In this document: piece after piece, positions 1-46,273 of the stretch
Numbering within the stretch: the stretch's first letter is position 1
Layout of the letters: every line of letters starts with the position of its first letter
Virus record (IMG/VR): IMGVR_UViG_3300037589_000034
Strand: one strand, 5' to 3'
DNA length: 46,273 bases
From: a virus
Program-made: the position numbers and the translations under genes
Notes under the pieces: model-generated
The model's database searches: none
What the model saw: only the letters and a program-made list of their open reading frames with translations
Told to the model about the DNA's origin: nothing

Positions 1-846
1 ATTGTATGCCCTTTGGATGGCCTGGAAATATGACAGCGGCCCGGCCTGGATCCGGTCCCTGGTTCCTGGTTCCTGGTTCCTGGTTCCTGGATCCGGTCCC
101 TGGTTCCCTGGTTCCTGGTTCCCTGGTATTAATATAGAGCTGCAGCGGCCCGGCCTGGATCCGGTCCCTGGTTCCTGGTTCCTGGTTCCTGGATCCGGTC
201 CCTGGTTCCCTGGTTCCTGGTTCCTGGTTCCTGGTTCCCTGGTTCCTGGTTCCCTGGTATTAATATAGAGCTGCAGCGGCCCGGCCTGGATCCGGTCCCT
301 GGTTCCTGGTTCCCTGGTTCCTGGTTCCTGGTTCCCTGGTTCCCTGGTTCCTGGTTCCCTGGTTCCTGGTTCCCTGGTTCCCTGGTTCCTGGTTCCCTGG
401 TTCCCTGGTTCCTGGTTCCCTGGTTCCTGGTTCCCTGGTTCCCTGGTTCCTGGTTCCCTGGTTCCTGGTTCCTGGTTCCCTGGTTCCTGGTTCCCTGGTA
501 TTAATATAGAGCTGCAGCGGCCCGGCCTGGATCCGGTCCCTGGTTCCTGGTTCCTGGTTCCTGGTTCCTGGTTCCTGGTTCCTGGTTCCCTGGTTCCTGG
601 TTCCTGGTTCCCTGGTTCCTGGTTCCCTGGTTCCTGGTTCCCTGGTATTAATATAGAGCTGCAGCGGCCCGGCCTGGATCCGGTCCCTGGTTCTTGGTTC
701 CTGGTTCCTGGATCCGGTCCCTGGTTCCCTGGTTCCTGGTTCCTGGTTCCTGGTTCCCTGGTTCCTGGTTCCTGGTTCCCTGGTTCCTGGTTCCCTGGTT
801 CCTGGTTCCCTGGTATTAATATAGAGCTGCAGCGGCCCGGCCTGGA
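1..846. repeat. Higher-order tandem array of 7/8-nt units (CCTGGTT / CCCTGGTT) punctuated by a 42-nt unit
   Basis: The 42-nt unit TATTAATATAGAGCTGCAGCGGCCCGGCCTGGATCCGGTCCC occurs at 127-168, 258-299, 499-540 and 646-687, with a truncated copy at 814-846. Between them are head-to-tail CCTGGTT/CCCTGGTT runs of unequal length (169-257, 300-498, 541-645, 688-813). Some runs carry an internal GGATCCGGTCCC. The array continues across the circular junction from about 46177. Confidence 0.95.
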
Positions 847-996
847 TATTTCAAAAAAATATTAAAATTTTTATCACTGAAAATCAGTGAGTTATAAAAA
901 AAAGTAAAAATATTTTTACAAAAATTTGCTTTTTAATTTCCGGCTGCTTTACTTTGGATCATCAAGTTTAAACAATCACAAAAAACAATCACAATC
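847..996 (+). promoter_or_regulatory. AT-rich region upstream of ardA; probable early promoter plus first copy of the conserved leader
   Basis: This is a very AT-rich 150 nt. It has a hairpin TCACTGA-AAA-TCAGTGA at 874-890 and the leader ATCAAGTTTAAACAATCACAAAAAACAATCACAATC at 961-996, directly 5' of the ATG. I could not identify an exact promoter consensus. Confidence 0.3.
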
Positions 997-1542
997 ATGA
1001 AAAATTTATCAATTCAATTAGATGAAATTCAGGTTTATGTAGGAACCTATCACAAGTACAATTCAGGATCATTGGCCGGGGATTGGGTTAATTTATCTCA
1101 ATTTTCAGATTTTGAGGAATTCCAGGAATTTATCAATGAATTGCACAGTGATGAGGATGATCCGGAGTTTATGTATCAAGACTTTGAATGTCCGGAATTG
1201 TTTAAATCAATGGAATTAATTTCTGAGTGCCATATTTCAGAAAATATTTTTGATGTCATTGAGGCACTTGAGGCCGCATATCTAGACATTGAAGTTTATT
1301 CTGCTTATGCTTCTCACACTGGATTTTCCGGAGATATTGAGGATCTAATTTCAGCAGCTGAGGAGGCCTATCAAGGGGAATTTGAATCTGATGAGGATTT
1401 TGCCCAAAATATGGCTGAGGATTTAGGATTGATCCAGGATAGGCCCGCATGGCCTCATTACTGCATAGATTGGGAATATGCCGCAAGGGAATTAATGTAT
1501 GATTATTTTGAGGAGTCCGGATATTATTTCAGGTCTCTATAA
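997..1542 (+). CDS. ardA: ArdA-like antirestriction protein (DNA mimic)
   Basis: 181 aa and very acidic. The segments VYVGTYHKYNSGSLAGDWVNLSQFSD..EF..ELHSDEDDPEFMYQDFE and C-terminal DWEYAARELMYDYFE match the ArdA family as I remember it, and the length is typical. Confidence 0.8.
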   Translation: MKNLSIQLDEIQVYVGTYHKYNSGSLAGDWVNLSQFSDFEEFQEFINELHSDEDDPEFMYQDFECPELFKSMELISECHISENIFDVIEALEAAYLDIEVYSAYASHTGFSGDIEDLISAAEEAYQGEFESDEDFAQNMAEDLGLIQDRPAWPHYCIDWEYAARELMYDYFEESGYYFRSL

Positions 1543-1621
1543 AAAATACCGGATCCAGGCCCGGCCTGGATCCACTCTAAAAAATCAAGTTTCACAATCA
1601 CAATTTTAAACAATCACAATC
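1543..1621 (+). repeat. Intergenic palindrome+leader unit, type 1
   Basis: A perfect 23-bp palindrome GGATCCAGGCC-C-GGCCTGGATCC lies at 1551-1573, followed by ACTCTAAAAAATCAAGTTTCACAATCACAATTTTAAACAATCACAATC and the ATG. The unit is 79/79 identical to 2696-2774. Confidence 0.95.
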
Positions 1622-1738
1622 ATGAAAAAATTAGCTCAAATTTTCCAGGCCTTATTTATTGTCTCATTTATTGCACTGGTTTTATATACCGGGTTCCACC
1701 TTTGCAAAGTTGAAATTAATCTATTCAGCGGCCTATAA
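1622..1738 (+). CDS. Small hydrophobic peptide (38 aa, one predicted TM segment)
   Basis: MKKLAQIFQALFIVSFIALVLYTGFHLCKVEINLFSGL. It is below the ORF-track cutoff, but it starts exactly after a type-1 leader and is followed by another unit. Confidence 0.55.
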   Translation: MKKLAQIFQALFIVSFIALVLYTGFHLCKVEINLFSGL

Positions 1739-1822
1739 TTAAGCCCGGCCCGGATCCAGGCCCGGCCTGGATCTACTCTAAAAAATCAAGTTTCACAATC
1801 ACAATTTTAAACAATCACAATC
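1739..1822 (+). repeat. Intergenic palindrome+leader unit, type 1
   Basis: GGATCCAGGCCCGGCCTGGATCT at 1752-1774 has one mismatch to the perfect palindrome. It carries the same leader as 1543-1621. Confidence 0.95.
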
Positions 1823-2695
1823 ATGAAAAAAGTACTAGAATTGACCACTGATATGATAGGATTTTCAAAAATCTGCAGCTATTGGGGCTATTTTTCAACT
1901 GAAAATATCATTGATTCATATACAATTAATGAGGATTTTGAGGCCGGATATTCAGATTTTAATTCTGAATATGCCCTTTATCACCTGGATGGATCCCGGA
2001 TTTTTGACAAAATTTCTGAATCAATAAATGAAATTTTGCCGGACCTGGTTTATGAATTGCAAGATTCAGGACTTAAATCGATTTTAGATATCACTCACTC
2101 CGGGTTTTCAAGTCCTAAATATTACAATTTTTCAGGTGATAGGTTTTATCTAGATTTTGAGGTCAATTGGCCAAAATTTCAAAAGCAGCTCAAAAAAATT
2201 GCTGCCAAAAATTCAGCTGAATTTTCAGATTTTCTCCGGGATAATTACAGCTCTAGAGATGGATTTATATCATTTACTGCAAATAATTTGGATCAATGGA
2301 TCCAGGATCTAGAGTCCGGAGATGTCACAGCTGCAGCAGCTTTTTTAACCTGGTTTATACATTCAAAAATAGATCTAGATTTTTCATTCCTGGTTTATGA
2401 AAATTTTTCTGAAAACTCATTTTATCCGGATTTTATAGATATGGATAGTCTAGAGGAGGCTATAAATGATATTAAGGCCGGGCAATATTTCAGCGGGATC
2501 TATCCAGGAATTGACCAGGATATGGAGTCTAATTTGATTATTAAATATCTAGACATTAATCCTGAATATATGCGGCCCGCTGCAGAAATAGCAGCTGAAT
2601 TGACCGAAAAATTTCCTGAAATAGAGATTGATTGGCTGCCAATAATTGAGAAAAAATTCCGGGATATTGATAGTCATACATTAAGCCTATTTTAA
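1823..2695 (+). CDS. Hypothetical acidic protein (290 aa)
   Basis: Long ORF starting right after the conserved leader and visibly rich in D/E. Motifs SPKYYNFSGDRFYLDF and SSRDGFISF are not assignable from memory. Confidence 0.7.
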   Translation: MKKVLELTTDMIGFSKICSYWGYFSTENIIDSYTINEDFEAGYSDFNSEYALYHLDGSRIFDKISESINEILPDLVYELQDSGLKSILDITHSGFSSPKYYNFSGDRFYLDFEVNWPKFQKQLKKIAAKNSAEFSDFLRDNYSSRDGFISFTANNLDQWIQDLESGDVTAAAAFLTWFIHSKIDLDFSFLVYENFSENSFYPDFIDMDSLEEAINDIKAGQYFSGIYPGIDQDMESNLIIKYLDINPEYMRPAAEIAAELTEKFPEIEIDWLPIIEKKFRDIDSHTLSLF

Positions 2696-2774
2696 AAAAT
2701 ACCGGATCCAGGCCCGGCCTGGATCCACTCTAAAAAATCAAGTTTCACAATCACAATTTTAAACAATCACAATC
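2696..2774 (+). repeat. Intergenic palindrome+leader unit, type 1
   Basis: Identical to 1543-1621. The palindrome lies at 2704-2726. Confidence 0.95.
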
Positions 2775-3377
2775 ATGAAAACTGTAGAAATTGAAATTTA
2801 TCAATTCAATGAATTAAGCCCAAAATCAAAGATTAAGGCACTAGAAAAATTTTCAGATATCAATGTAGATCATGGATGGTATGAATCAGTTTATGACTGG
2901 TTTATTGGCCGGGCCGCTGAGGCCGGATTTTCAGTAGATAGGATTTATTTTTCCGGGTTTTACTCTCAAGGTGATGGGGCTATGTTTGAATATTCAGATC
3001 CAGGAGATGATAAATTATTAAGGGAATTTATAGATACATTGGATCTATCACCTATGCGAAAATCTTGGCTATTGAGTCAAGTTTACTGCAGATATTCAGG
3101 CACTCATTCAGGCCATTATTATCATTCAGGCTGCTGCAGTCATTCAATCACTTTTGAGTCAAATTTTACCTGGTCTGCAGCTGAAAATTTTTCAGATTGG
3201 ATTGATAGTTTTCATTCAGATTTTGAGGAGTTTATTGAGTCAAAATATAGAGACCTTTGTGATGAGTTGTATGATAGTCTGCAGATTGATTATGAATATC
3301 TTACCTCAGAAGAGGCTATAATTGAGACAATTGAGGCCAATAATTACGAATTTTTTAGAGATGGATCTATCTATTAA
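2775..3377 (+). CDS. Hypothetical acidic protein (200 aa)
   Basis: ORF after the conserved leader. The motif IYFSGFYSQGDGAMFEY recalls conserved hypotheticals of mobile elements, but I cannot name a family. Confidence 0.7.
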   Translation: MKTVEIEIYQFNELSPKSKIKALEKFSDINVDHGWYESVYDWFIGRAAEAGFSVDRIYFSGFYSQGDGAMFEYSDPGDDKLLREFIDTLDLSPMRKSWLLSQVYCRYSGTHSGHYYHSGCCSHSITFESNFTWSAAENFSDWIDSFHSDFEEFIESKYRDLCDELYDSLQIDYEYLTSEEAIIETIEANNYEFFRDGSIY

Positions 3378-3452
3378 GCCCGGTCCGGATCCAGGTATTA
3401 AGGCCTGGATCCAGGCCTCAAAAAATCAAATTTCAAACAATCAAATTAAGCC
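3378..3452 (+). repeat. Intergenic palindrome+leader unit, type 2
   Basis: The hairpin GGATCCAGG-TATTAAGG-CCTGGATCC at 3387-3412 overlaps an 18-bp perfect palindrome AGGCCTGGATCCAGGCCT at 3401-3418. The leader is AAAAATCAAATTTCAAACAATCAAATTAAGCC followed by the ATG. Confidence 0.9.
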
Positions 3453-3647
3453 ATGAAAAATCAAGTTGAAAAAATTTTGTACGGAGTTAAAAAAGAAAAT
3501 CCGGACTATATGGAGGAAATAATCACTACTCATTCAGACCGGATTGAGGCTGCAAAAATTTGGGCCGCAAATAATGGGTTTAATCGATTTAGAGTAGCTG
3601 AAATAGATCTATCAATTAAGCCGGATTTTATTAAAACTATTCAATGA
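3453..3647 (+). CDS. Hypothetical protein (64 aa)
   Basis: ORF starting directly after a type-2 leader. Confidence 0.6.
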   Translation: MKNQVEKILYGVKKENPDYMEEIITTHSDRIEAAKIWAANNGFNRFRVAEIDLSIKPDFIKTIQ

Positions 3648-3724
3648 ATTAAGCCCGGCCCGGATCCAGGAATTAAGGCCTGGATCCGGACCTTAAAATC
3701 AAGTTTCAAACAATCAATTAAGCC
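3648..3724 (+). repeat. Intergenic palindrome+leader unit, type 2
   Basis: Hairpin GGATCCAGG-AATTAAGG-CCTGGATCC at 3662-3687. The 49 nt before the ATG are identical to those of the unit at 3890-3949. Confidence 0.9.
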
Positions 3725-3889
3725 ATGAATAATTTATCAGATATCGAAATTATAAATCTCCATGCTTTTGTTTTTTGGCCTGGAGTAGATATATCAATCC
3801 AGGCCATGAAAAAAGAATTAAGGAGTTTTTCCAGGTCCAGGAAAATATCAATCCAGGATATCATTAATGAAGAGAAAAATTTTCAATAA
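3725..3889 (+). CDS. Hypothetical protein (54 aa)
   Basis: MNNLSDIEIINLHAFVFWPG... It is below the ORF-track cutoff, but it is bracketed by two type-2 units and starts right after the leader. Confidence 0.5.
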   Translation: MNNLSDIEIINLHAFVFWPGVDISIQAMKKELRSFSRSRKISIQDIINEEKNFQ

Positions 3890-3949
3890 TAATCCAGGCC
3901 CGGCCTGGATCCGGACCTTAAAATCAAGTTTCAAACAATCAATTAAGCC
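3890..3949 (+). repeat. Intergenic palindrome+leader unit, type 2
   Basis: Palindrome ATCCAGGCC-C-GGCCTGGAT at 3892-3910, followed by the type-2 leader. Confidence 0.9.
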
Positions 3950-4384
3950 ATGAAAACTCAGTCAGTATCTCAGAAATTAGATAGCATATTTTTACCTATT
4001 GCTATTGATTCAAAATCACCGGAGGATTTTATTTTCCGGGCCCGGATCATTAAGTCAGTAGATCCGGAGATATCAAATTATTTTACCGAAAAATTTGGAT
4101 ATTCCGGAGGCAAAAAATTAAGCCTGAATCAAGCTGCAGAAAATTACTTAAATTATGCCATGGAAAAATCACAATCAAGGCCCGCAAAAAAACTAGATTC
4201 AGATCATCAAAGATTTAAGCAAATGATTAAGGCCATGGGAATGAGCTATAAATCATTAGCTGCAGATTTAGGCCTGGAGTACAATAGCCTCAAGTCTATG
4301 CTAGCCCCATCAAAGGAACTACCTAAATGGGCCATAAGCATGCTATTGGTTTATGAAAAAATGAATCAATCGGACCTGGATTAA
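3950..4384 (+). CDS. Hypothetical protein with C-terminal helix-turn-helix-like segment (144 aa)
   Basis: The C-terminal QMIKAMGMSYKSLAADLGLEYNSLKSMLAPSKELPKW looks like an XRE-type HTH. The N-terminal half is not recognised. Confidence 0.5.
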   Translation: MKTQSVSQKLDSIFLPIAIDSKSPEDFIFRARIIKSVDPEISNYFTEKFGYSGGKKLSLNQAAENYLNYAMEKSQSRPAKKLDSDHQRFKQMIKAMGMSYKSLAADLGLEYNSLKSMLAPSKELPKWAISMLLVYEKMNQSDLD

Positions 4385-4440
4385 GTCCAGGATCCGGACC
4401 TCAAAATCAAGTTTCACACAATTACAATCACAATTAAGCC
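4385..4440 (+). repeat. Intergenic palindrome+leader unit, type 3
   Basis: Degenerate palindrome GTCCAGGATCCGGAC at 4385-4399. The leader is CTCAAAATCAAGTTTCACACAATTACAATCACAATTAAGCC followed by the ATG. Confidence 0.85.
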
Positions 4441-4620
4441 ATGAAAAATTATAGCATAAATTACAACGTAGGATCCTCAAAGTATTTAGTCACTTTTTTT
4501 GATGGGATCAAGAAAAATAGAGATGGCAGTCATGCTGCAGATATTAGGATTTTTAAGAATAAAAAACTCCTAAAATCATTTATCTCAGATTTAGAAAATA
4601 AAGGTTTTAAAAAGAATTAA
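4441..4620 (+). CDS. Hypothetical protein (59 aa)
   Basis: MKNYSINYNVGSSKYLVTFFDGIKKNRDGSHAADIRIFKNKKLL... It starts right after a type-3 leader and is below the ORF-track cutoff. Confidence 0.55.
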   Translation: MKNYSINYNVGSSKYLVTFFDGIKKNRDGSHAADIRIFKNKKLLKSFISDLENKGFKKN

Positions 4621-4624
4621 GGCC

Positions 4625-4822
4625 ATGAGAGATCTATTCCTGGAGAAAATAATCAGTAAGGATATTATCATCAATAAAGGTGAAAATCTATCTATGTATT
4701 GTGGTCAAATAATGACTACAGAAGAGGCCTGGATCAAGGTGCATGAATTGATAAAATTAGGCCGGGCAAAAAAGGTCCTGGATAATGAGTACACTTTGCA
4801 ATATCACCTCCTGGATGATTAA
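4625..4822 (+). CDS. Hypothetical protein (65 aa)
   Basis: It starts 4 nt after the previous stop, in the context AATTAAGGCCATG. It forms a two-gene cassette with 4441-4620. Confidence 0.55.
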   Translation: MRDLFLEKIISKDIIINKGENLSMYCGQIMTTEEAWIKVHELIKLGRAKKVLDNEYTLQYHLLDD

Positions 4823-4873
4823 GTCCAGGATCTAAAATCAAAATCAAGTTTCAATCACAATCACAATTAAGCC
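4823..4873 (+). repeat. Intergenic leader unit, type 3 (palindrome truncated)
   Basis: GTCCAGGATCT followed by AAAATCAAAATCAAGTTTCAATCACAATCACAATTAAGCC and the ATG. Confidence 0.85.
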
Positions 4874-5050
4874 ATGAATCAATTAATCTATAGAATTCAC
4901 ACTGCAGACCGAAAAATCAAGTATGCAGGGACCGGACTAGACTCCTGGTTTACACTAGATCAAGCCCGGCAAAAAGTAGATCCATCAAGAGGAGAAAAAA
5001 TCTATCAATACTCCGGTCCTGGAGGAGATCCACTTTGGGAAATACTCTAA
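4874..5050 (+). CDS. Hypothetical protein (58 aa)
   Basis: MNQLIYRIHTADRKIKYAGTGLDSWFTLDQARQKVDPSRGEKIYQYSGPGGDPLWEIL. It starts right after a type-3 leader. Confidence 0.5.
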   Translation: MNQLIYRIHTADRKIKYAGTGLDSWFTLDQARQKVDPSRGEKIYQYSGPGGDPLWEIL

Positions 5051-5130
5051 ATAAATTAAGTCCGGATCCAATAATTAAGTCCAGGATCTGGACCTCAAAA
5101 TCAAGTTTCAATCACAATCACAATTAAGCC
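5051..5130 (+). repeat. Intergenic palindrome+leader unit, type 3
   Basis: GTCCGGATCC..GTCCAG-GAT-CTGGAC hairpin, followed by the leader CTCAAAATCAAGTTTCAATCACAATCACAATTAAGCC and the ATG. Confidence 0.85.
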
Positions 5131-5340
5131 ATGAAAAATCAAGTCAATCAATCTACAGATCTATTTCAATCCCTGGAATTATTGCCGGATACGGTCCAGG
5201 AGTGCATCAATCAATATGCTCAATCTGAGCAATTAAATTACCAGGAGTGTAAAGAATTCCAATCAAGGCTAGAATCAATGGGATATACTTTTGATTATTC
5301 CCTGGATGCCACTCCTTTCAATTTGAGAAAAATCAATTAA
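5131..5340 (+). CDS. Hypothetical acidic protein (69 aa)
   Basis: ORF starting right after a type-3 leader. Confidence 0.6.
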   Translation: MKNQVNQSTDLFQSLELLPDTVQECINQYAQSEQLNYQECKEFQSRLESMGYTFDYSLDATPFNLRKIN

Positions 5341-5370
5341 TCAAGTTTCAATCACAATCACAATTAAGCC
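5341..5370 (+). repeat. Leader-only unit, type 3
   Basis: TCAAGTTTCAATCACAATCACAATTAAGCC followed by the ATG, with no palindrome. Confidence 0.85.
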
Positions 5371-5781
5371 ATGAAAATTCAAGATCAAATCTCGAAAAAA
5401 ATTAAGTCACTCCAGGCCACAATTAAGGCCGGACATTGGCCAAAAGGATACCTGGACAATTGCAGATCTCAGGTAAATAGATATCAGACTCAGCTCGAAA
5501 TATTAGGCTATCCGGACCTAGATGGATTGAACCCTGTAGAGATCAATGAGCTCATCACAAAGTATCTCAATCGATTTGATGATTATGAGCAGCTCGCAAG
5601 TGATCAAGGAAAGTCCACTGCCATCATCACATTAGCCTATCACCGATTGGACCAGGAGAGATTCAAGATTAAGGCCGGACTGCCTCCTAATATCGAGCTG
5701 ATTAAGGCCTCCATTGAGCGAGCTCAGCAGCGGGCCATTGAGCTAGATCTCGAAAATTTGAGAGAGATCTTTGAGGCATAA
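5371..5781 (+). CDS. Hypothetical protein (136 aa), last gene of the cassette array
   Basis: ORF starting right after the leader. It is predicted helical, and I recognise no motif. Confidence 0.65.
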   Translation: MKIQDQISKKIKSLQATIKAGHWPKGYLDNCRSQVNRYQTQLEILGYPDLDGLNPVEINELITKYLNRFDDYEQLASDQGKSTAIITLAYHRLDQERFKIKAGLPPNIELIKASIERAQQRAIELDLENLREIFEA

Positions 5782-5788
5782 AAAAAAC

Positions 5789-5812
5789 CTCCGGGCAATC
5801 ACTCCCGGAGGC
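5789..5812 (+). other. Hairpin CCTCCGGG-CAATCACT-CCCGGAGG followed by a decayed leader copy
   Basis: An 8-bp stem preceded by an A-run, with no downstream T-run. It is followed by ATCAAGTTTCAACAATCTCGCCACAATCAC and a 5-codon ATG ORF, which looks like a vestigial cassette. Confidence 0.5.
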
Positions 5813-5916
5813 CATCAAGTTTCAACAATCTCGCCACAATCACGAAGCGAAAAAGTCAATGATCAAAGGTAAGTAAAAATATTACTACTTCGCAAATACA
5901 TTAAGTAACCAATCAC

Positions 5917-5948
5917 TCCCGGATCCATTAAGGTCCGGGATTTTTTTT
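5917..5948 (+). terminator. Rho-independent terminator closing the early cassette array
   Basis: TCCCGGA-(10 nt loop)-TCCGGGA followed by TTTTTTTT. Confidence 0.75.
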
Positions 5949-5969
5949 GCCCCATTAAGTCACTCCTGG

Positions 5970-5980
5970 TTTGTCCTTTC
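5970..5980 (+). promoter_or_regulatory. Late-motif copy 1 (TTTGTCCTTTC) upstream of the tail operon
   Basis: One of five intergenic copies of the consensus TGAtTTtGTCCTTTC. It lies 44 nt before the start at 6024. Confidence 0.5.
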
Positions 5981-6023
5981 TGGCAGGGAATAGCCTCAGT
6001 ACCTTCCTTAAAATTAATCCACA

Positions 6024-6398
6024 TTGGAAGAGCTGATCAAAAAAGAATTCATTTCACGCATTCTCCAGGAGCAGAGAGAGGATCTCGAAATAGACCAGGA
6101 GATAGCATTTAGAAAGTACCTGCAATTCAGGACCGGGAATACTTTCGCATCCCAAAAATTCGCAGTGGAAATGAGCCCGGCCTATATGTCTGGCAAGATC
6201 TCATACACTGCCAAAGCTCATGTCCGATTTCTGGATATCAAGCCATTCCGGAGAAAATCCGGATTCACCGATGGCAAAATCAGATACATATTCAATCGAA
6301 GGATCGAGCATGTCTATCTCCGCACTGCAGCCAGAATGATGTTTGGCCTCACTGAGGAGGTAGTCCAGGGGATCAAGCGAGGACTCAATACTAATTAA
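6024..6398 (+). CDS. Hypothetical protein (124 aa), first gene of the tail operon
   Basis: ORF with a TTG start, and no in-frame ATG until codon 50. It sits immediately upstream of the tape measure gene; the start is uncertain. Confidence 0.5.
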   Translation: MEELIKKEFISRILQEQREDLEIDQEIAFRKYLQFRTGNTFASQKFAVEMSPAYMSGKISYTAKAHVRFLDIKPFRRKSGFTDGKIRYIFNRRIEHVYLRTAARMMFGLTEEVVQGIKRGLNTN

Positions 6399-6406
6399 GT
6401 CACACT

Positions 6407-9400
6407 ATGGCAAAAAAGAAATTAAGGGATGAGGACCTGGTACTCAATATCATTGTCAATGGGGACCAAGGCAGAAAAGAAATCCTGGACCTGGAGAAGG
6501 CCATCAAGCAGACCAATAGAGAATTAAGGCAACTTGAGAGACAGCGAGAGGAGCTCATTAAGACTGGCAAAAAAGAGACTGCAGAATACAAGGCAGTCAC
6601 AGCGGCCATCGATCTAAAAAACTCCGCTCTCGATAAGGCTAGAGGCAGACTTGCACAATTAAGGCAGGGAATGGATCTCAATAGTAAGTCTGTATCTGAT
6701 CTCCGGAGAGAGATTACCAGGCTTACCAAGCTCCGCAATATAGCTCCTCCTATGACAGAGGAGTGGCATCGACACAATGAGCAGCTCCGGCTAGTCCAGG
6801 CTAGATATAATGAGCTCACAGGTAGAGCTCAAGGTTTGGGCAAGATGTTTTCCGGAGGCCTGGCAAAAGGCATCGGAGTAGCTGCAGCTGCAGTCACTTC
6901 TTTTGTGATCGCTGGTAGGCAAGTGATGAGAGTAGTGGATGATTTTGGCAGGTTTGATGATCTCCTGGCAGATGTCCGCAAGACTACCAATCTCACCTTT
7001 GGAGAGCTGGAGAATCTGAATGATGAGATTAAGTCAATCGATACCAGATCCTCACAGGAGGAGCTTCTCAAATTAGCCAGGACTGCAGGTAAGTTAGGGA
7101 TCGAAGGATCCGAGAATGTCCTGGGTTTTGTCAGAGCTGCAGACCAGATCGGAGTAGCTCTAGCAGAAGATCTCGGAGGAGATGTAGAGCAAGCTCTTCG
7201 CCAGGTAGGTAAGCTGGTAGATATATTCAATGTCCGGGAGGAGTTTGGCATCGAACAAGGCATGCTCAAGGTCGGATCTGTGATCAATGAGCTCGGGATC
7301 AATTCCACAGCTGCAGAGCAATACATGGTAGATTTTACCAAGCGATTGGCAGGTGTGGCTCCAGCTGCCAAGATCTCCATAGCCAATGTGATGGGATACT
7401 CATCCACACTGGATCAGCTCGGGCAGTCTGCAGAAGTAGCAGGGACCACCTTTGTCAATTTGATCCCGGATCTCTTTACCAATCCGAGCAAGTTTGCCAA
7501 GATTGCAGGGATCGAGGCTCAGGAGTTTTCTAGGATTCTGAATGAGGATGCTAATGAGGCATTGATCAAGCTCTTTGAGGGGATCAAAGGCAATGAATCA
7601 TCCATGACTGCCATGGCTCAGCGATTGGTCCAGCTAGGATTGGATGGAGCCAGAGCTACCAATGTAGTCTCAGCTCTTGCCAATAATACCGAGCTCCTAA
7701 GATCCGAGCAGGAGATAGCCAATAAGGCATTCAGAGAAGGGATCTCCCTGACCAATGAATTCAATATCAAGAATGAGACTCTCGCTGCCAATGTAGAAAA
7801 GATAGGAAGGTACTTCTACAATCTCTACATGAACTCCGAGCTCCGGGCCGGGATGAGGGATTTCTTTGGGGGAATAGCCGATTGGCTATACACTTCCAAT
7901 CAGGCCCTAAAGTCATTCCAGGAGCAGGATCAGGCAGTCCAGGCATTGGAGGCTAATGTCTCTCCACTCATCGCTAGATATGAGGAGCTGGAGACCAAGA
8001 CCAATAGATCTGCAGCTGAGAATGAGGAGCTCAAGACAGTGATCAATCAGATCGGAGCGGCCATCCCTGGAGCGATCACTCAGTTTGATGGCTATGGAAA
8101 TGCCATCGGGATCAGTACTGGTAAGGCTAAGGAGTTTATCGAAGCTCAAAGGCTCATGCTCAAGTATATGAATCGAGAGGCTATCGAGGATACTAAAGAG
8201 GGGCTGATCGACACAAAGGAGCAGATAGTTGATATTCTGCAGCAGCTCAATAGGAGAGATGCTGATGGAGATTTAGCTAAGCTGGTCAGTAGGCAATATG
8301 GATTTCAGATGATCACTGAGGAGGTGAAGCTCACTGCAGAAGAGATCGCAAATCTCCAGGCTAATCTAGCGGCTCTTCGTAAGCAGGAAAAAGACCAAGA
8401 GACACTCATCAAAGGTCTATCCGGAGAGATTGATCCTAATGAGGGATCCACCTCCGGCACAACTACCACTCCTCCTCCTACTCCAGAGCCAAAGACTGAG
8501 ACAGAAGAGGAGCGAAAGGCAAGAGAAGCTAGGGAAAAAGCTGCAGCTGCAGAGCGAGAGCGAGCTATCAAGGCAGCGCAAAAGCAAGCAGAGCAGGAGG
8601 CAGAGCTCCGGAGAAAATACATTATTGGTCAGCTGGACCTAGTGGCCCAGGAAAAGATCGCATACGAGGAGCGGCTCAAGGCAGCTGGCCTCTACTACCT
8701 ACGCAAGGATGAGATGAGTACCGAGCAGCTCCTTGCATACGAGGCTATGGAGGATGAGCACTTGCAAAAGCTAAATGATATCACCTCCAAGAGACTGGAT
8801 GAGAATCTCCAGACCAGAGAGGACCAGTACAAGGCAGATCTCCAGGCTCTCAAAACTCTTCACAATGAGGAGTATAAATCCTTTGAGACCATGGAGCAGA
8901 TCAAGTCATTTCTCCGGGACAAAGTTTCGAGAGAGACCTTGGATGGAATTACCAATATGCGCCAGGCTCAGATCGCATTGGATAAGCATTACCTGGCAGA
9001 GGAGGAGGAGCTCACCAGGCAGTATCTCAATGGATTGCTCCAGGACCTACAGATCCTGGCATCCACCGGACAGCTCGAAGGAGTGGACCTGGCAAATCAG
9101 ATCCTTTCACCAGAGCAAAAGGCAGAGCTGGAGGCTCGCATCGCTCAGATCAAGCTCATGCTATCAGAGCTCGGACTTGGATCCGGGACCGAGATCGAGG
9201 CAGATCGGGGAGAGCGGAGAAGAGATGTGGATGTCCTGGGATTCTCAGTAGATGATTGGCAGACATTCTTTGACAACCTGGACAAAGGCAAGGTAGGATT
9301 CAATGAAATGCTGATGGGAGTCCAGGCTCTGCAGGGAGTCTATGCGACCTATGCAGCCTATGTCTCTGCAGGAGAGCGAAAGCAGCTCCAGGAGTATGAG

Positions 9401-12430: not shown

Positions 12431-12441
12431 TTTGTCCTTTA
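12428..12441 (+). promoter_or_regulatory. Late-motif copy 2 (TGATTTGTCCTTTA) upstream of the lysis genes
   Basis: The TGA is the stop codon of the preceding gene. The motif lies 28 nt before the holin ATG. Confidence 0.5.
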
Positions 12442-20590: not shown

Positions 20591-20845
20591 ATGAATTATT
20601 TAACCCCCATGGATGCAAGGAATCTTTTTACCAGATTGAGAGAATTAAACACTGAGAGTATTTCCCTAGAGCTGCAGCAGCTCCAGGATCTAGTAGTCAA
20701 GCACTACGATCCAGAGCTACCAGCCAAAAGCCTGATTGAAACTTACACTATGCTCTCCTCTATTGACAATCTGATCCGGGACCTTGCATTACTCGCATCT
20801 CAGATCGAAGGCGATCAAGATCTACATGAGAGTAAATCATCGTAG
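20591..20845 (+). CDS. Doubtful ORF (84 aa) converging on and overlapping the integrase 3' end
   Basis: The ORF is open, but 86 nt overlap the integrase on the opposite strand. It lies in the probable attP region. Confidence 0.25.
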   Translation: MNYLTPMDARNLFTRLRELNTESISLELQQLQDLVVKHYDPELPAKSLIETYTMLSSIDNLIRDLALLASQIEGDQDLHESKSS

Positions 20846-22040
20846 TGCTGATCTTGGAGTGGCCTAGTAGTTTCTGCAGGACTTCTATATGGCCTCCTCT
20901 CCGGAGAAATTCAGTTGCGAAAGTATGCCTGGCTACATGAGTGGTCAGGCATTTTCTTATTTCGGACCTCCCGGCTATATCCTTTAGGATCTCATTGTGA
21001 TTTTTCATGGTAGTGGTATCAAAGAGCTTTCCTTTTTTATTCTGGACCAGCGCAAAGGCATCCTCAGTGATCGGGACTGTCACTCGCTTTTCGATGCCTC
21101 TTGTCTTGTGTGGAATGAATATCAAGAGATCATCCTCGATCTCCTTCCAGGTGACTCGCTCGATATCCGAAAATCGGAGCCCGGTCAAAGTGGAAAACAA
21201 AAAGGCTCCCAGGACTCGCTTATGGGATGGCAGGATATCCTCTGACTGGTAGTAGTGCCACAGTTTTTTGAGCTCTGCAGGATTGCAATAGACTATCCTG
21301 CCATTGGTAGATGGCATCTTAAATTCTGCTATAGACTCCATATTTACTGCCATCCCTACCTTGCTCGCTCTCCGGGCCTGAGACTTGATGGTTTTTAAGA
21401 TGGACCAGGATCCATTGACAGATAGGCCTTCATTTTTCCTGAGCCAGGCATGCAGACTCTCCAGACTCTCCTCATTTAGCTCTGAGAATCTCCATTCACT
21501 TCTCCATCCTTGGACTCGCTTGATTTGACTCTTTAGGTTTTTGTAGGTCTGCAGCTCGATCTTACCTGCATGATATCGATCCTCGATGTCCTGATTAGAC
21601 CAGGCTAGGAAATCTTTTCGGAGGCCATAGCGGCCATATTCCCGGACAAACTCCTCAATGCTCAGCTCAAAGTCCGAGTGCCTGTAGAATAGAAATATAT
21701 CATTGATTTTGGCTAGCTCTTTTTGAGCAAGCAGATTGTAGTCAGTAGCGAGCTGATCTGTTTTGGTCCTGGGGAGAAACTGACCGGATCGATTGTCAAA
21801 TTTATCGATGGGCCAGCTGATTTTGAGTGGGATCTGAGTCCGGCTAGAATTGATCAGTACCTGGATGTAGATAGGAGCTAGTCCCTCCTTATTAGGCCTG
21901 TCTCTCCGGATCCTTACTGCAGCACTAGCTCGCATGTCTCCTTTTTTCGTGTGAAAAATTGGAGACATGCGCTTGCTTAAAGTGCCTGTTTTGGCCATTC
22001 TGGACATTTGTGTGAAATTTTGTGTGAAACCAAAATCCAC
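20760..22040 (-). CDS. int: Tyrosine recombinase / phage integrase
   Basis: The C-terminal HVARHTFATEFLRRGGHIEVLQKLLGHSKISTTMIYSHV carries the H-x-x-R ... Y catalytic pattern. LTGLRFSDI holds the R box. The N-terminal RIRRDRPNKEGLAPIYIQV arm-type domain is as in Bacteroidota integrases. The true start may be an internal Met (21935-22007). Confidence 0.9.
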   Translation of the reverse strand: MDFGFTQNFTQMSRMAKTGTLSKRMSPIFHTKKGDMRASAAVRIRRDRPNKEGLAPIYIQVLINSSRTQIPLKISWPIDKFDNRSGQFLPRTKTDQLATDYNLLAQKELAKINDIFLFYRHSDFELSIEEFVREYGRYGLRKDFLAWSNQDIEDRYHAGKIELQTYKNLKSQIKRVQGWRSEWRFSELNEESLESLHAWLRKNEGLSVNGSWSILKTIKSQARRASKVGMAVNMESIAEFKMPSTNGRIVYCNPAELKKLWHYYQSEDILPSHKRVLGAFLFSTLTGLRFSDIERVTWKEIEDDLLIFIPHKTRGIEKRVTVPITEDAFALVQNKKGKLFDTTTMKNHNEILKDIAGRSEIRKCLTTHVARHTFATEFLRRGGHIEVLQKLLGHSKISTTMIYSHVDLDRLRSEMRVMQGPGSDCQ

Positions 22041-23529: not shown

Positions 23530-23611
23530 ACATCCTTTTAAAAATCCAGGCCTGTTCCGGTAGGGCCTGGATCTCATCTCGATTCAATCAATCACAAATC
23601 ACAATCACACC
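23530..23611 (+). repeat. Palindrome+leader unit, distant copy outside the cassette array
   Basis: Hairpin ATCCAGGCC-(11 nt)-GGCCTGGAT at 23535-23563, followed by CAATCAATCACAAATCACAATCACACC and the ATG. Confidence 0.75.
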
Positions 23612-43539: not shown

Positions 43540-44447
43540 ATTTGGTCGAGATACCAGAGGCCGGATTTAAGGCAGAGATCCCCTCTCATTGGGATGAAAT
43601 GACTCAAGAGCAAGTAGAGTACTGCCTCAAGCAAGCTGTATTTGCTAGTCGAGGGATAGTGGATGAGGTCGAGGCTCAGGTAAGATGTCTCTACCATGTC
43701 CTGGACATCGAGCGAGACTGGAAATCTGAGTATTGGGAGCGAGTGAATTCCAAGGATGATGTAGATCACAAAAACTCCCAAGCGATCATCCTGGCAGAGC
43801 AGCTATTTTCCTGGATATTCAAGATCAATGAGCGAGAGCTCCTGGAGGTCCAGTACAATACACTCACCAATCATTTCCCAAAACTCAGATCCGGAAAGGT
43901 CCAGCTCCATGGTCCAGCGGATATGCTGACTGATCTCACCTTTGGAGAGTTCAGAGCAGCTATAGAGGAGATGAATGAGTATTTCAAGACTAGATCCTCC
44001 AAGTCACTCTCCAGGTTCCTGGCATGCCTATACAGGCCAGCTCATCCGGATATAGAGCAGCTCCGAAAAGCGATTGATTGGAATGGGATTGTCCGGGAGC
44101 CATTCAATCCGGCCAGACTGGACATCAATGCACAGCTCACCGATAAGCTGTCCACAGTGCATCGGACCGGGATCCTGCTCTGGTTTACTTTCTGTATCGA
44201 ATTCATTCAGAAAAATGAGCTGATCATCGGAGGTCAAGAGATCAATTTCAATGTACTATTCTCCGGTGGAGAAGGTGGATCTGGATCCGGATGGACAGGC
44301 GTACTCCATGCAGTGGCAGAGAAGCAGATCTTTGGTACTGCAGACCAGGTGGACCAGAAAAATATATTCGATCTCTTGGTCTATATGTATGACAAAGAGA
44401 TGGAAAATAAAAAGATCAAATCGAAACTAAGATCCAAAAAGGCATGA
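43536..44447 (+). CDS. Hypothetical structural-module protein (303 aa)
   Basis: ATGA overlap with the previous gene. Confidence 0.5.
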   Translation: MNLVEIPEAGFKAEIPSHWDEMTQEQVEYCLKQAVFASRGIVDEVEAQVRCLYHVLDIERDWKSEYWERVNSKDDVDHKNSQAIILAEQLFSWIFKINERELLEVQYNTLTNHFPKLRSGKVQLHGPADMLTDLTFGEFRAAIEEMNEYFKTRSSKSLSRFLACLYRPAHPDIEQLRKAIDWNGIVREPFNPARLDINAQLTDKLSTVHRTGILLWFTFCIEFIQKNELIIGGQEINFNVLFSGGEGGSGSGWTGVLHAVAEKQIFGTADQVDQKNIFDLLVYMYDKEMENKKIKSKLRSKKA

Positions 44448-44869
44448 TAACTATCACCCAATTTGACCAAGCTATCCAGGCTATTGTCGATCACATAGGA
44501 GCCACTGATTTTGTCAGAGCTGCCAATGATGAGCATGTCACCAGGAGACTTGCAGACAAGTCCGGAGACATCGTAGTGGCCTCCCTCCCCACCTTCTCTC
44601 AGCGAGGTATGTCTGAGAATCCATCGGAGCAGCATGCAGCTTTCCTATGGATCCTAAGCAAGCCTGGAGCTGATGATACAGAGCAGGATGAGCGGGACAA
44701 TTACGAGCGCATGCAGCAGCTGATCCTCCAGGCTAAGGAGTTTATCCGAGAGCAGCAGGAGGATGGCTGCTCGATCTGGTGGAGACTGGAGGTCAGCTCG
44801 ATTATCATCGAGCCAGAGTACAATCTTTGGGGAGGATGGAATGGATGGCACATGACTTTACTATTCTGA
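44444..44869 (+). CDS. Hypothetical structural-module protein (141 aa)
   Basis: ATGA overlap with the previous gene. Confidence 0.5.
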   Translation: MITITQFDQAIQAIVDHIGATDFVRAANDEHVTRRLADKSGDIVVASLPTFSQRGMSENPSEQHAAFLWILSKPGADDTEQDERDNYERMQQLILQAKEFIREQQEDGCSIWWRLEVSSIIIEPEYNLWGGWNGWHMTLLF

Positions 44870-44997
44870 TGGATTGTGTAGTTTTTTCCCTTTTGTTATT
44901 AGGCCTGTCATTCATTGTATTGATCGCTTATATAGGTATCTCTTCTAGGGATTCTCCAGGATTTTCAAAACTTCCTAGATCCCCAAAAAATAGGTAG
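44869..44997 (+). CDS. Small membrane peptide (42 aa)
   Basis: TGATG overlap. MDCVVFSLLLLGLSFIVLIAYIGISS contains a TM segment. This is an internal start of the track ORF 44779-44997. Confidence 0.35.
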   Translation: MDCVVFSLLLLGLSFIVLIAYIGISSRDSPGFSKLPRSPKNR

Positions 44998-45015
44998 AAT
45001 TTTTTCATAGGGTGA

Positions 45016-45050
45016 CAGCTGGAGGAGGGGAGGCCTCCGGCTGATTTTTT
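45016..45050 (+). terminator. Rho-independent terminator ending the head operon
   Basis: CAGCTGGAGG-(8 nt)-CCTCCGGCTG, a 10-bp stem with one G-U pair, followed by ATTTTTT. Confidence 0.65.
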
Positions 45051-45075
45051 GCCTGATATTCACTATATTAGAGCC

Positions 45076-45366
45076 ATGACAGCAATACAAAAAACACTCG
45101 CCCACACCTATCAGACAATCACTGCAGTAAACGCTCTGATACGCATCAAGGCATTGATATTTCATAGCCCTCTCCAGGCTGATATCATGCCGGATCTCCT
45201 CCCTTCTGATCCGATCAAGAGGAGTACCTATTTCATCAATCTATACAAGTATGCCAGGCTCAAGCTCCTGCTCAAGGAAGGAATGAAATTCCAGATCAAT
45301 GACATGGAGACCGGAAAGCCTCTTGCATTTGTACTCAAAGGAAAAGTCTCATATCCTGCAGAATAG
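45076..45366 (+). CDS. Hypothetical protein (96 aa), moron-like
   Basis: ATG after the terminator; the TTG start at 45049 would lie inside the terminator. A second terminator follows the gene. Confidence 0.45.
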   Translation: MTAIQKTLAHTYQTITAVNALIRIKALIFHSPLQADIMPDLLPSDPIKRSTYFINLYKYARLKLLLKEGMKFQINDMETGKPLAFVLKGKVSYPAE

Positions 45367-45418
45367 GCCTAGTTTTTGATCTAGGTATATTCCCTTATAG
45401 GTTTGGTGCTAGACAGTA

Positions 45419-45455
45419 GGCTCGGGTTCACTTTTGGTGGATCCGAGCTTTTTTT
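45419..45455 (+). terminator. Terminator candidate
   Basis: GCTCGG-(16 nt)-CCGAGC followed by TTTTTTTT. Confidence 0.45.
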
Positions 45456-45490
45456 TGATCTTTAACGAGCTATTTAAAACTACTCCTCCT

Positions 45491-45856
45491 ATGAAAAAAG
45501 TAATGATCTTAATGCTATTGATTGTAGCATCCTCCTGCAGCTATCTGGATATAGAGCTGAAAGGAAAGTGGTATATGGATTTTCACGATGCTGCCTACGA
45601 AGGAGATGGCCTCCAGCAGATCGCCCACTCCAAGCCATTTGATTTCATCGAATTCAATTTTGGGGATGTCATTATTGATGGTAAAAAGACTACCTATCAG
45701 AAGCTAGATGGAGACTACATCTCGATTGATATCGATGGTCAGAGCTATAAGTTTTTTGTCAGTACTACGACCTATAATGGCAAAAAAATGCTCATGCTCA
45801 CCAGTCTGGAATACACTCCAAAAGATATCTCAGCATACTACCTGGTCAAGACTTAA
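45491..45856 (+). CDS. Lipoprotein (121 aa), moron-like
   Basis: MKKVMILMLLIVASSCS is a lipobox-like signal. The gene is bracketed by terminators. Confidence 0.55.
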   Translation: MKKVMILMLLIVASSCSYLDIELKGKWYMDFHDAAYEGDGLQQIAHSKPFDFIEFNFGDVIIDGKKTTYQKLDGDYISIDIDGQSYKFFVSTTTYNGKKMLMLTSLEYTPKDISAYYLVKT

Positions 45857-45880
45857 CACCTTTCATCTGACCACCAACCG

Positions 45881-45904
45881 AGGCCCTATTTAGGGCCTTT
45901 TTTA
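45881..45904 (+). terminator. Rho-independent terminator
   Basis: AGGCCCT-ATTT-AGGGCCT followed by TTTTTTATT. Confidence 0.75.
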
Positions 45905-45984
45905 TTGTCTAAATTCCTGCTTTTCACCACCTACTTCCAATCAGAAAACCCCTCAAATTCCACCGTATTTGCAATTTATTATCG

Positions 45985-46096
45985 AAAAATCGCCCAAAAT
46001 TCACCTAGAAAAAGCTGAAAAAGACATAGAATTACAGATAAAAAATCGCTAAGTATCTGATAATCAAGCGAAGAGGGTCAAGTATCCAAAAATCGC
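45985..46096 (+). repeat. Three direct AAAAATCGC words in the non-coding region before the tandem array
   Basis: Copies at 45985-45993, 46041-46049 and 46088-46096. They are short, so chance cannot be excluded. Confidence 0.35.
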
Positions 46097-46146
46097 ATAT
46101 AAGTGCCTATGAATCGACCCCCGGTCCGCCCTCCCGGCCAAATGCA

Positions 46147-46273
46147 ATTGTATGCCCTTTGGATGGCCTGGAAATATGACAGCGGCCCGGCCTGGATCCG
46201 GTCCCTGGTTCCTGGTTCCTGGTTCCTGGTTCCTGGATCCGGTCCCTGGTTCCCTGGTTCCTGGTTCCCTGGT
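46147..46273. repeat. 127-nt terminal overlap identical to 1-127 (circular contig closure)
   Basis: I compared the two ends base by base and they are identical. Confidence 0.9.

Follow-up and report, generated by a model that had tools for sequence, protein, structure and literature searches.

The stretch of DNA analysed here (the window) is the complete 46,273-nucleotide (nt) sequence of the IMG/VR virus record IMGVR_UViG_3300037589_000034, a circular assembly whose first 127 nt are the same as its last 127 nt and which matches a JGI metagenome contig of 46,173 bp at 100% identity, and our subject is an array of small genes at 997-5948 that begins with a gene for an ArdA-like protein. A preliminary description, made from the sequence alone, had pictured this array as twelve plus-strand open reading frames (ORFs) separated by a reiterated palindrome-plus-leader unit, and as a candidate modular anti-defence island. 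ORF coordinates and repeat analysis bear out the reiterated units and the twelve ORFs, which lie in 997-5781 at the coordinates first reported. Comparison with four other phages carrying the same type of island (L025/L098, L088, L099 and L102) further indicates that the region is a modular, hypervariable cassette array, and that the constant part of its unit is the leader and not the palindrome. The cassette genes, for which amino acids (aa) and isoelectric points (pI) are given, and the elements framing them are as follows.

45-835, plus strand: CCTGGTT/CCCTGGTT tandem array, about 105 copies in 5-6 higher-order units bounded by GGTATTAATATAGAGCTGCAGCGGCCCGGCCTGGATCCGGTCC.
925-956, plus strand: candidate host promoter of the Bacteroidota sigma-A type (TTTG, 20 nt, TTACTTTG).
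997-1542, plus strand: ORF1, ArdA by profile match, 181 aa, pI 4.05, net charge -37.
1622-1738, plus strand: o38, small hydrophobic single-transmembrane peptide, no family match.
1823-2695, plus strand: o290, acidic protein, pI 4.26, of a family without assigned function.
2775-3377, plus strand: o200, acidic protein, pI 4.36, phrog_5162 (E=2e-31).
3453-5781, plus strand: eight further ORFs, o64, o54, o144, o59+o65 (one two-gene cassette), o58, o69 and o136.
5780-5858, minus strand: candidate antisense 'anti-leader' small RNA of ~79 nt, opposite to what had been taken for a decayed leader.
5864-5896, minus strand: candidate promoter of the antisense RNA (perfect TTTG, 21 nt, TACCTTTG), its box ending 5 nt before the start of the RNA model.
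5917-5948, plus strand: canonical intrinsic terminator, the sole plus-strand terminator-like site that closes the array.

The cassette block is situated between p141 (a 141-aa gene, 44444-44869) and p124 (a 124-aa gene, 6024-6398), just upstream of the tape-measure gene. These two genes are ~7.3 kb apart in the window, whereas their homologues lie only 12-340 bp apart in 15 distant relatives, with the tape-measure gene following them; the block is thus read as a large insertion of the moron type, covering about 44870-46146 plus 1-6023 of the circular genome. Morons of temperate phages, as described by Hendrix and colleagues, are autonomous promoter-gene-terminator insertions between late genes. 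The 15 relatives include prophages in metagenome-assembled genomes (MAGs) of Prolixibacteraceae, Draconibacterium and Labilibaculum (Bacteroidota), and scans of genomes and metagenomes with a p124 profile returned only distant phages (29-39% identity) in which p141 and p124 are adjacent and the island is missing. The ~7.3 kb hold a 105-aa ORF, a lipoprotein-like ORF, a noncoding stretch, the CCTGGTT tandem array, an AT-rich zone and the cassette array, whose GC content is 35% as compared to about 46% elsewhere. By this comparison, the region is the main part of an accessory insertion in the tail-gene operon, a moron-like autonomous block between late genes.

Most structural genes of the phage received no family assignment in family searches, and the distant relatives of those flanking the block were uncultured viral contigs, metagenome contigs and Bacteroidota MAGs. 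An integrase gene with the domains Arm-DNA-bind_5, SAM_5 and Phage_integrase is located at 20760-22040, about 15 kb from the array, and the same phage was found integrated beside host genes on a Logan contig (L095 12347-20336). Judged from the integrase and this integrated copy, the phage, a Bacteroidota siphovirus, is temperate. Downstream of the integrase in L095 are the host genes for ABM, SAM hydroxide adenosyltransferase, PhoH, ComEC and RecQ, and a 623-kb host contig likewise carries the proteins of the phage as a prophage.

The repeated units between the genes fall into three subtypes, here called type 1, type 2 and type 3, each confined to its own block, in agreement with the three leader blocks noted earlier; an element related to them lies elsewhere in the genome.

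1543-1621, 1739-1822 and 2696-2774, plus strand: type-1 units (hairpin, A-run and leader).
3378-3452, 3648-3724 and 3890-3949, plus strand: type-2 units.
4385-4440, 4823-4873, 5051-5130 and 5341-5370, plus strand: type-3 units.
23530-23611, plus strand: related element upstream of a 75-aa early ORF.

Two type-1 units had been described as identical over 79/79 positions; the identity holds and extends further, to 89/89 positions (1540-1628 vs 2693-2781), and a third copy at 1741-1829 is 90% identical. The leader core ATCAAGTTTCA, allowing at most one mismatch, is present in 12 plus-strand copies from 961 to 5824, while the rest of the window contains no exact copy; the total of 14 hits, which no shuffle reached, compares with 1.76 expected. 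In each leader the core is followed by (CA)CAATCAC repeats, then by ATC or ATTAAGCC, and then by the ATG. All predicted folds leave the leaders unpaired, and their lengths of 27-38 nt agree with the median of 32 nt reported for Bacteroides 5' untranslated regions (PMC7366714). Genes outside the array likewise have no Shine-Dalgarno sequences, as expected for Bacteroidia (PMC6847099), and the type-1 leaders, which precede ArdA, o38, o290 and o200, carry A at -3, -6, -12 and -13, positions measured in Flavobacterium johnsoniae as positive determinants of initiation (PMC6847099). The related element at 23530-23611, previously counted as one more unit, does have a hairpin and a CAATCAC-type leader (CAATCA/CACAATCAC) and is without the ATCAAGTTTCA core; a few early genes elsewhere in the phage have ACAATCAC just before the ATG.

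The leader recurs well beyond the window. Across the 44 genes of the five islands, the ATCAA[GAT]T core was found at 33, CAATCR at 32 and TTAAG[CGT]C beside the ATG at 19. When the window is compared with L088, identity is 97% for the leaders (over 39-42 nt), only 70-73% for the shared ORFs and 74% for the p124 region, and since the leaders are so much better preserved than the ORFs that they precede, the leader appears to be under selection. Most likely it serves both as a Shine-Dalgarno-free translation start region and as a recombination substrate. A related motif shows an extreme strand bias, ATTAAG being present 33 times on the plus strand and 0 times on the minus strand of the array (997-5948; 3.2 expected), 19 vs 0 times in the L088 island (1-2600), and 7 and 4 times in the other 39 kb of the window. 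Its consensus is A-TTAAG-[CGT]-C and it is located at stop codons, beside start codons, in hairpin loops and inside ORFs (in two reading frames), with 14 occurrences inside ORFs and in hairpin loops; we found no explanation for this bias.

In the island-bearing relatives, p124 is 73% (L025/L098), 84% (L088) and 63% (L099) identical to that of the window, while L102 was found through the closest homologue of o200. As far as the contigs reach, the islands share one order, namely tandem array, AT-rich zone with promoter, small plus-strand genes, distal element, terminator and TGTCCTTTC before p124. Gene content is largely different, and BLASTP identified six cassette homologies among four of the islands, L102 being compared by reading its sequence. 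Thus, o69 resembles x74 of L088 (59% identity), the N-terminus of o144 resembles L088 x155 (61% identity, only one domain being shared), and o136 is weakly similar to L088 x104 (29% over 76 aa). The C-terminus of o38 shares 65% identity with the gene that comes first in the island of L025. The L102 island consists of a 64-aa gene, ArdA, an o200 homologue directly following it, and ten further genes, and a 53-aa protein of L102 resembles o64 by eye. Shared cassettes stand in different neighbourhoods and combinations, and the homology between o69 and x74 starts at the ATTAAGCCATG start context and stops at the stop codon, as the preliminary description had anticipated when it proposed that gain and loss of genes in relatives should be bounded by the repeats. 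Wider searches yielded little else: megablast of 900-6000 against 50,697 phage records gave no match, a scan of IMG/VR for the leader pattern gave 4 single hits, about the number expected by chance, with one true relative (L003, the same contig as L025), and a search for loci with ArdA retrieved only relatives at <=43% full-length identity.

An in silico scan with the Bacteroidota promoter consensus (-33 TTTG / -7 TAnnTTTG; PMC7366714) identified the candidate promoter at 925-956, and the leader core ATCAAGTTTAA begins 4 nt past it, at 961. Equivalent sites with a perfect TAnnTTTG, TTTG upstream and N19/20 spacing are present in L099 (TACCTTTG) and L102 (TACATTTG). In all four islands with a visible start the leader core begins 3-4 nt past the -7 box, and the internal leaders therefore appear to copy the 5' end of the primary transcript. 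No TAnnTTTG, -33/-7 motif or relaxed -7 box was found in any internal unit, and sigma-70-like sites were not enriched (20 found vs 18.9 expected), so that sigma-70 promoters in the units were dropped as a candidate. At some junctions the cassettes overlap or have no more than ATTAAGYCATG between them (L088 1114 and 1335). At the distal end, the terminator at 5917-5948 stands where it had been placed before, and an equivalent hairpin with a T-run closes the L088, L025 and L099 islands. Since the internal units have neither promoter motifs nor U-tracts, we read the array as a single predicted operon running from the promoter at 925-956 to the terminator at 5917-5948.

Directly upstream of the promoter lies the CCTGGTT tandem array, which wraps to 46190-46273 and has a variable unit length, a 147-bp period over part of its extent and an AT-rich core TATTAATATAGAG. 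L025, L099 and L102 have tandem arrays of other sequence (GGTGTG-rich, units of about 30-61 bp) at the same position. The tandem arrays are always followed by an AT-rich zone of ~150 bp, and the contigs of all four relatives break inside the array. Such an array could represent a set of iterons together with an unwinding element, a series of binding sites for a regulator, or a structure of another kind.

The palindromes proved to be the less constant partner of the leader. The 23-bp palindrome GGATCCAGGCC-C-GGCCTGGATCC is perfect at 1551-1573 and 2704-2726, as first reported, the palindromes in general are 23-36 bp long and perfect or nearly so, and six of the nine inter-cassette hairpins are strong (-16 to -26 kcal/mol), with stems of 8-14 bp and A-rich single-stranded flanks. 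The 'palindromes' at 4385-4440 and 4823-4873 barely fold, and in the five islands a hairpin of -10 kcal/mol or lower stands upstream of only 15 of the 44 genes, most junctions in the relatives being without one. The words that make up the palindromes (GGATCC, CCWGG, CCGG and GATC) are about 8-fold over-represented genome-wide, for which reason a specific concentration of restriction-type palindromic sites in the array was dropped, and GGCCCGGCCTGGAT is both the core of the intergenic palindromes and the boundary motif of the CCTGGTT tandem array. The earlier view of the palindrome as a necessary part of the unit hence has to be abandoned. What does stand is that the palindromes are not canonical terminators on the coding strand, where the inter-cassette hairpins have no U-tract; three of them would terminate on the minus strand. 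The GC-rich hairpins thus look like optional additions, predicted to be non-terminating on the coding strand, and most likely protect the 3' ends of RNAs or delimit their processing.

The element at 5780-5858 had been dismissed as a decayed leader, and its minus-strand promoter and terminator had been overlooked. It is not decayed and is conserved in all five islands. Read on the minus strand, it is predicted to fold into two hairpins, stem-loop 1 with CGUGAUUG as its loop and a terminator hairpin with the loop AGUGAUUG and a U8 end, which are joined by the single-stranded linker AUUGUUGAAACUUGAU, a canonical minus-strand terminator (hairpin and U7-8) closing the element. The minus-strand fold was more stable than the plus-strand fold in the four islands tested (-30.9/-19.7, -31.1/-19.1, -26.1/-18.6 and -29.2/-27.0 kcal/mol), owing to G-U pairs; the advantage was 2-12 kcal/mol, and 7-12 kcal/mol in three of the four. 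A -7 box is present at the aligned position in five of five islands, perfect in four (TACCTTTG, TACATTTG, TAATTTTG, TAGTTTTG and TACCTTAG), while its two free positions vary and its flanks diverge. Compensatory changes support the two helices: ten of the 17 pairs change on both sides, and 89% of the cells are paired, a value that none of 500 shuffles reached (70% paired) and that fell to 34-56% on sliding the partners. A covariance model trained on four islands recovered the fifth, L102, which had not been used in training, at 78.6 bits, and over 50 loci it detected only the island-bearing phages and nothing comparable in the 45 others, a weak hit in L077 being an ordinary terminator. Rfam (E<=1) gave no match on 1-6500. 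This conserved minus-strand mini-gene, with its -7 box, two covarying hairpins and U-tract, probably makes an RNA of ~79 nt. The predicted RNA exposes the AUUGUUGAAACUUGAU linker, and GUGAUUG in both loops, which are complementary to ATCAAGTTTCA and CAATCAC of the leaders, and for all but one of the 12 array genes the calculated duplexes with the leaders have energies of -19.5 to -32 kcal/mol, as compared to -16.3 +/- 3.8 kcal/mol at 35 other gene starts.

Regarding the cassette products, ORF1 matches PF07275 (E=3.2e-21, 77 bits against a curated cut-off of 27, residues 13-177 of 181) and phrog_2059 (E=6e-28), and with 43 D+E against 6 K+R it has the highly acidic make-up of a DNA mimic. By these matches ORF1 is an ArdA anti-restriction protein, in line with the preliminary description, which was also right in noting several acidic genes (ArdA, o290, o200 and, with pI 4.32, o69). 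The gene that it credited with a helix-turn-helix (HTH) has a weak match only, the C-terminus of o144 reaching HTH_26 at E=0.0016-0.012, below the curated cut-off. Weak HTH candidates are present in three islands, and a 62-aa protein of L099 has Xre-like and phrog_638 matches, all below curated cut-offs; a small HTH autoregulator gene would be expected in an anti-defence operon of the acr-aca type. Inside o144, ATTAAGGCCATGGGAATG (4226-4237) reproduces the start context of the cassette leaders and is conserved at the nucleotide level in the L102 homologue (~3305-3316); initiation there would yield the ~50-aa HTH domain alone, the part that matches phrog_8898. A Hok-like toxin function of o38 was considered and found unsupported.

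The two large acidic proteins following ArdA belong to widespread families. A profile search with o290 gave 3431 representatives at E<=0.001, many of about 200 aa, the family covering the N-terminal domain of o290; ten tested members had no Pfam match, and the AlphaFold2 model of o290 (pLDDT 68) had no match in the PDB. For o200 there are >370 homologues of about 200 aa, all unnamed, with W35, a GFxSQGDGAMF motif, H117, C121, H123 and C162 invariant, and homologues are also found in early-gene arrays of unrelated phages (e.g., L100, near an SNF2 helicase). The AlphaFold2 model of o200 was confident (pLDDT 90.8), had no fold match in the PDB and matched only uncharacterised phage proteins in BFVD. 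Profile and structure checks of the kind suggested earlier identified ArdA. For o200 and o290, sequence searches of Pfam, NCBIfam, PHROGs and the PDB yielded no function, and neither did two AlphaFold models or three fold searches; by hhalign the two proteins are unrelated. The L088 island carries a phosphoadenosine phosphosulfate (PAPS)-reductase/DndC-like gene, which is suggestive of anti-defence at most. Of the original proposal, the modular hypervariable array headed by ArdA holds; an anti-defence role is supported for ArdA only, and 'anti-defence island' is a plausible name for the whole.

Sequence comparison establishes the insertion, its variable content, the conservation of the leader, the lack of internal promoter and terminator motifs and the conserved distal structure, and as an explanation of all of these together we consider it reasonably probable that the region is an inserted single operon with a shared leader and an antisense RNA. 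One host-type promoter (925-956) would drive transcription of about 12 promoterless cassettes into a polycistronic RNA that ends at the terminator (5917-5948), and the copy of the unstructured CA/A-rich leader at each cassette would provide the Shine-Dalgarno-independent translation start needed by the hosts, giving any newly acquired gene immediate and uniform translation. The near-identity of the leaders at the junctions could supply the homology for duplication, swap and loss of cassettes. The hairpins may protect RNA 3' ends or mark processing boundaries, and three of them could halt antisense transcription. ArdA comes first, two of the next three genes encode large acidic proteins, and all four have the best leader subtype, an arrangement that would fit an early role in anti-restriction or host takeover. 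Finally, the distal antisense RNA, with linker and both loops complementary to the leaders, could regulate all cassettes together. More tentatively, and with rather less confidence than in the scheme as a whole, this ~79-nt RNA may be a master regulator of the interchangeable array acting through the shared leader, so that each newcomer would gain both translation and an off-switch, with ATTAAG[CGT]C (33:0) as a further RNA-level signal. In this scheme we infer transcription, translation, recombination, antisense control and any anti-defence role beyond ArdA.

Several observations weigh against this explanation. The promoter, the operon and the antisense RNA are all in silico predictions; the promoter of the window's array has one mismatch, and the two-box motif is not enriched in the genome (6 with TTG at -33 vs 3.0 +/- 1.7 expected). 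The type-2 and type-3 leaders end in ATTAAGCC, with G at -3 and T at -6, which departs from the known A-rich determinants. Some of the breakpoints fall within ORFs, at the level of domains (o144 vs L088 x155), and to this extent the expected confinement of breakpoints to the repeats fails. Only five related sequences, aligned by fitting them to the model, underlie the covariation, the complementarity between RNA and leaders is automatic for an element that is a leader paralogue, and in L099 the same element is the real leader of the 62-aa HTH-like gene. Moreover, ArdA is the sole cassette product with a known function.

Among the alternatives, the one that survives best, though we regard it as unlikely, is that the hairpins are sites for RNase III or another endonuclease and produce monocistronic mRNAs with a standard 5' end, as in the early region of T7, where ocr is followed by RNase III sites between the early genes. 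The likeness includes a DNA-mimic anti-restriction gene in first position and hairpins between the small genes of one host-transcribed operon; the hairpins are strong, non-terminating and flanked by A-rich single strands, and what is predicted as the 5' end of the primary transcript is repeated in the internal leaders. However, substrates of RNase III typically have about two helical turns (about 20 bp or more), and the stems here, of 8-14 bp, are below that. Two units of the window and most junctions of the relatives are without a stable hairpin, and the phage is a temperate one, with the block away from the genome ends. Processing of the T7 type is possible as a secondary role of the hairpins, compatible with the single-operon explanation.

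A second alternative, which we hold to be distinctly unlikely, is that each unit is a composite of terminator and promoter that makes every cassette its own transcription unit, as for the promoter early stem-loop (PeSL) elements of T4-type phages, in which reiterated terminator and early-promoter motifs frame small ORFs in hyperplastic regions (Arbiol 2010, PMC2839356; Comeau 2014, PMC4122927). The layout is the same, with a stem-loop and then a conserved sequence before small ORFs of unknown function, and the motifs delimit what is gained, lost or replaced between relatives, as seen for o69/x74. The core CAAGTTTC even matches four of the six fixed positions of TAnnTTTG by eye, and a promoter of another kind than sigma-A (for a phage-modified polymerase or an extracytoplasmic function sigma factor) would escape a motif scan. 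Against this, no unit has the -33/-7 Bacteroidota motif, which removes the PeSL analogy drawn in the preliminary description, sigma-70-like sites are at chance level, and the stem-loops are optional, missing at most junctions of the relatives, and no terminators, having no coding-strand U-tract. Junctions consisting of ATTAAGYCATG or of an overlap leave no room for a promoter, and because the core starts 3-4 nt past the -7 box of the true upstream promoter, it would be transcribed sequence and no promoter. PeSL elements, furthermore, belong to lytic myoviruses, whereas the leader described here occurs in a temperate siphovirus.

It is less probable still that the repeats merely reflect tandem duplication and gene conversion, the distal element being a dead leader beside a chance promoter-like sequence. 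Blocks of near-identical subtypes and the 89/89 match are what local duplication or conversion would leave, and the promoter motif is not enriched genome-wide; but the leaders keep 97% identity between phages that share only ~70% in their genes, and they recur in five islands from independent samples, and the distal element keeps its -7 box, compensated stems and U-tract in all five while its flanks diverge. The least probable alternative is an integron-like system in which the palindromes and ATTAAG-type cores are sites for a site-specific recombinase, since, for all the promoterless one-orientation cassettes behind one promoter, the palindromes between some of them and the resemblance of ATTAAG[CGT]C at cassette borders to the attC core GTTRRRY, there is no IntI or attI, the sole recombinase is the Bacteroidota-type phage integrase about 15 kb away, the genes called in the five islands, mostly small and without annotation, include no recombinase, the palindromes are short, perfect, dispensable and absent from most junctions of the relatives, unlike the 57-141-bp imperfect attC palindromes with RYYYAAC...GTTRRRY cores, and 14 copies of ATTAAG are located within ORFs and hairpin loops, so that the earlier analogy with integrons lapses.

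Returning to the inserted operon with a shared leader, its closest relations among known systems can be named. In function, the nearest analogy is the shuffling of modules by PeSL elements, whose defining promoter and terminator have no counterpart in the units here. With morons it shares the insertion between genes that are adjacent in relatives, its own promoter-like site and terminator (both recognised as motifs in silico) and a deviant base composition; it differs in holding about 12 cassettes instead of one or two genes, and in its repeated leader, upstream tandem array and candidate antisense RNA. The leading regions of conjugative plasmids carry anti-defence genes (PMC11541004) and show translational adaptation (PMC13478746), and like them the array combines ArdA with many small unknown genes in one orientation and sequence apparently tuned for fast expression. 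Here, however, these genes lie in the middle of a double-stranded DNA phage genome and not at a defined entry end, and single-strand promoter hairpins were not seen, no specific search having been made for them.

Antisense RNAs that mask a translation start region, such as P22 sar and the Sok RNA of hok/Sok, are the nearest models for the distal element. It is likewise a candidate short RNA with its own predicted promoter and terminator, complementary to an mRNA leader, and has a conserved structure with compensation and a strand preference (five sequences); the difference is that the candidate RNA would have not one target but nearly a whole array, matching the leaders of all its 12 genes except one. 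In conclusion, the feature is real and beyond chance, and is kin to both the moron and the hyperplastic cassette region, with a shared leader as its constant part. Of greatest interest in it are the common leader, which appears to be selected, the candidate anti-leader RNA and the ATTAAG motif confined to one strand of the array.

The remaining features of the insertion and its right edge are listed here.

45049-45856, plus strand: left part of the insertion, with the 105-aa ORF and the lipoprotein-like ORF.
ATG at 45491, plus strand: lipoprotein-like ORF (MKKVMILMLLIVASSC...) with its own perfect TTTG-N19-TAGGTTTG promoter (box at 45398).
About 45876-45905, plus strand: canonical terminator of the lipoprotein-like ORF.
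5971-5979, plus strand: TTGTCCTTT, candidate promoter or regulatory motif of late operons, which marks the insertion's right edge.

Neither the 105-aa ORF nor the lipoprotein-like ORF had a tblastn match in any compared locus. The promoter, the lipoprotein-like ORF and the canonical terminator at 45398-45905 form a separate single-gene moron, and the noncoding stretch between this terminator and the tandem array contains three plus-strand copies of AAAAATCGC (45985, 46041 and 46088), spaced by about 50 bp. The motif TTGTCCTTT has four copies in the window, all on the plus strand (5971, 12432, 15114 and 40811), those at 12432 and 40811 lying within about 40 nt of ORF starts, and the copies are near the starts of late operons (p124 and the tape-measure gene, p166, the gene for a 1309-aa protein, and p108). 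It is also found upstream of p124 in L025, L088 and L099, and of the p108 homologue in the distant relative L077, and is a candidate late promoter or activator site. Another variable block of unrelated small genes, 4-5.5 kb in length, separates the homologues of p582 and p108 in the island-free relatives L071 (1509-5889), L077 (242-5809), L072 and L075; these two genes are adjacent in the window. Oligonucleotide usage of the phage is biased genome-wide, with GATC 3.6-fold and GGATCC, TCCGGA and CTGCAG 8- to 10-fold over-represented, CGTC (0 vs 114 expected), GACG (7 vs 140) and CGCG (0) depleted, and the dinucleotides AC, GT and CG at about 0.5-0.6 of expectation.

The phylum Bacteroidota uses no Shine-Dalgarno sequences, and the regulation of its phages is poorly known. 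If the explanation favoured here is true, the array would be a plug-and-play expression platform for accessory, probably anti-defence, genes in Bacteroidota phages, and its leader could serve Bacteroidota genetics directly, as a portable element for starting translation. The five islands also provide a list of about 40 small proteins to be tested against defence systems, including the o200 and o290 families that travel with ArdA. One antisense RNA matched to the shared leader would, if true, be a simple way of controlling an ever-changing set of genes as a unit.

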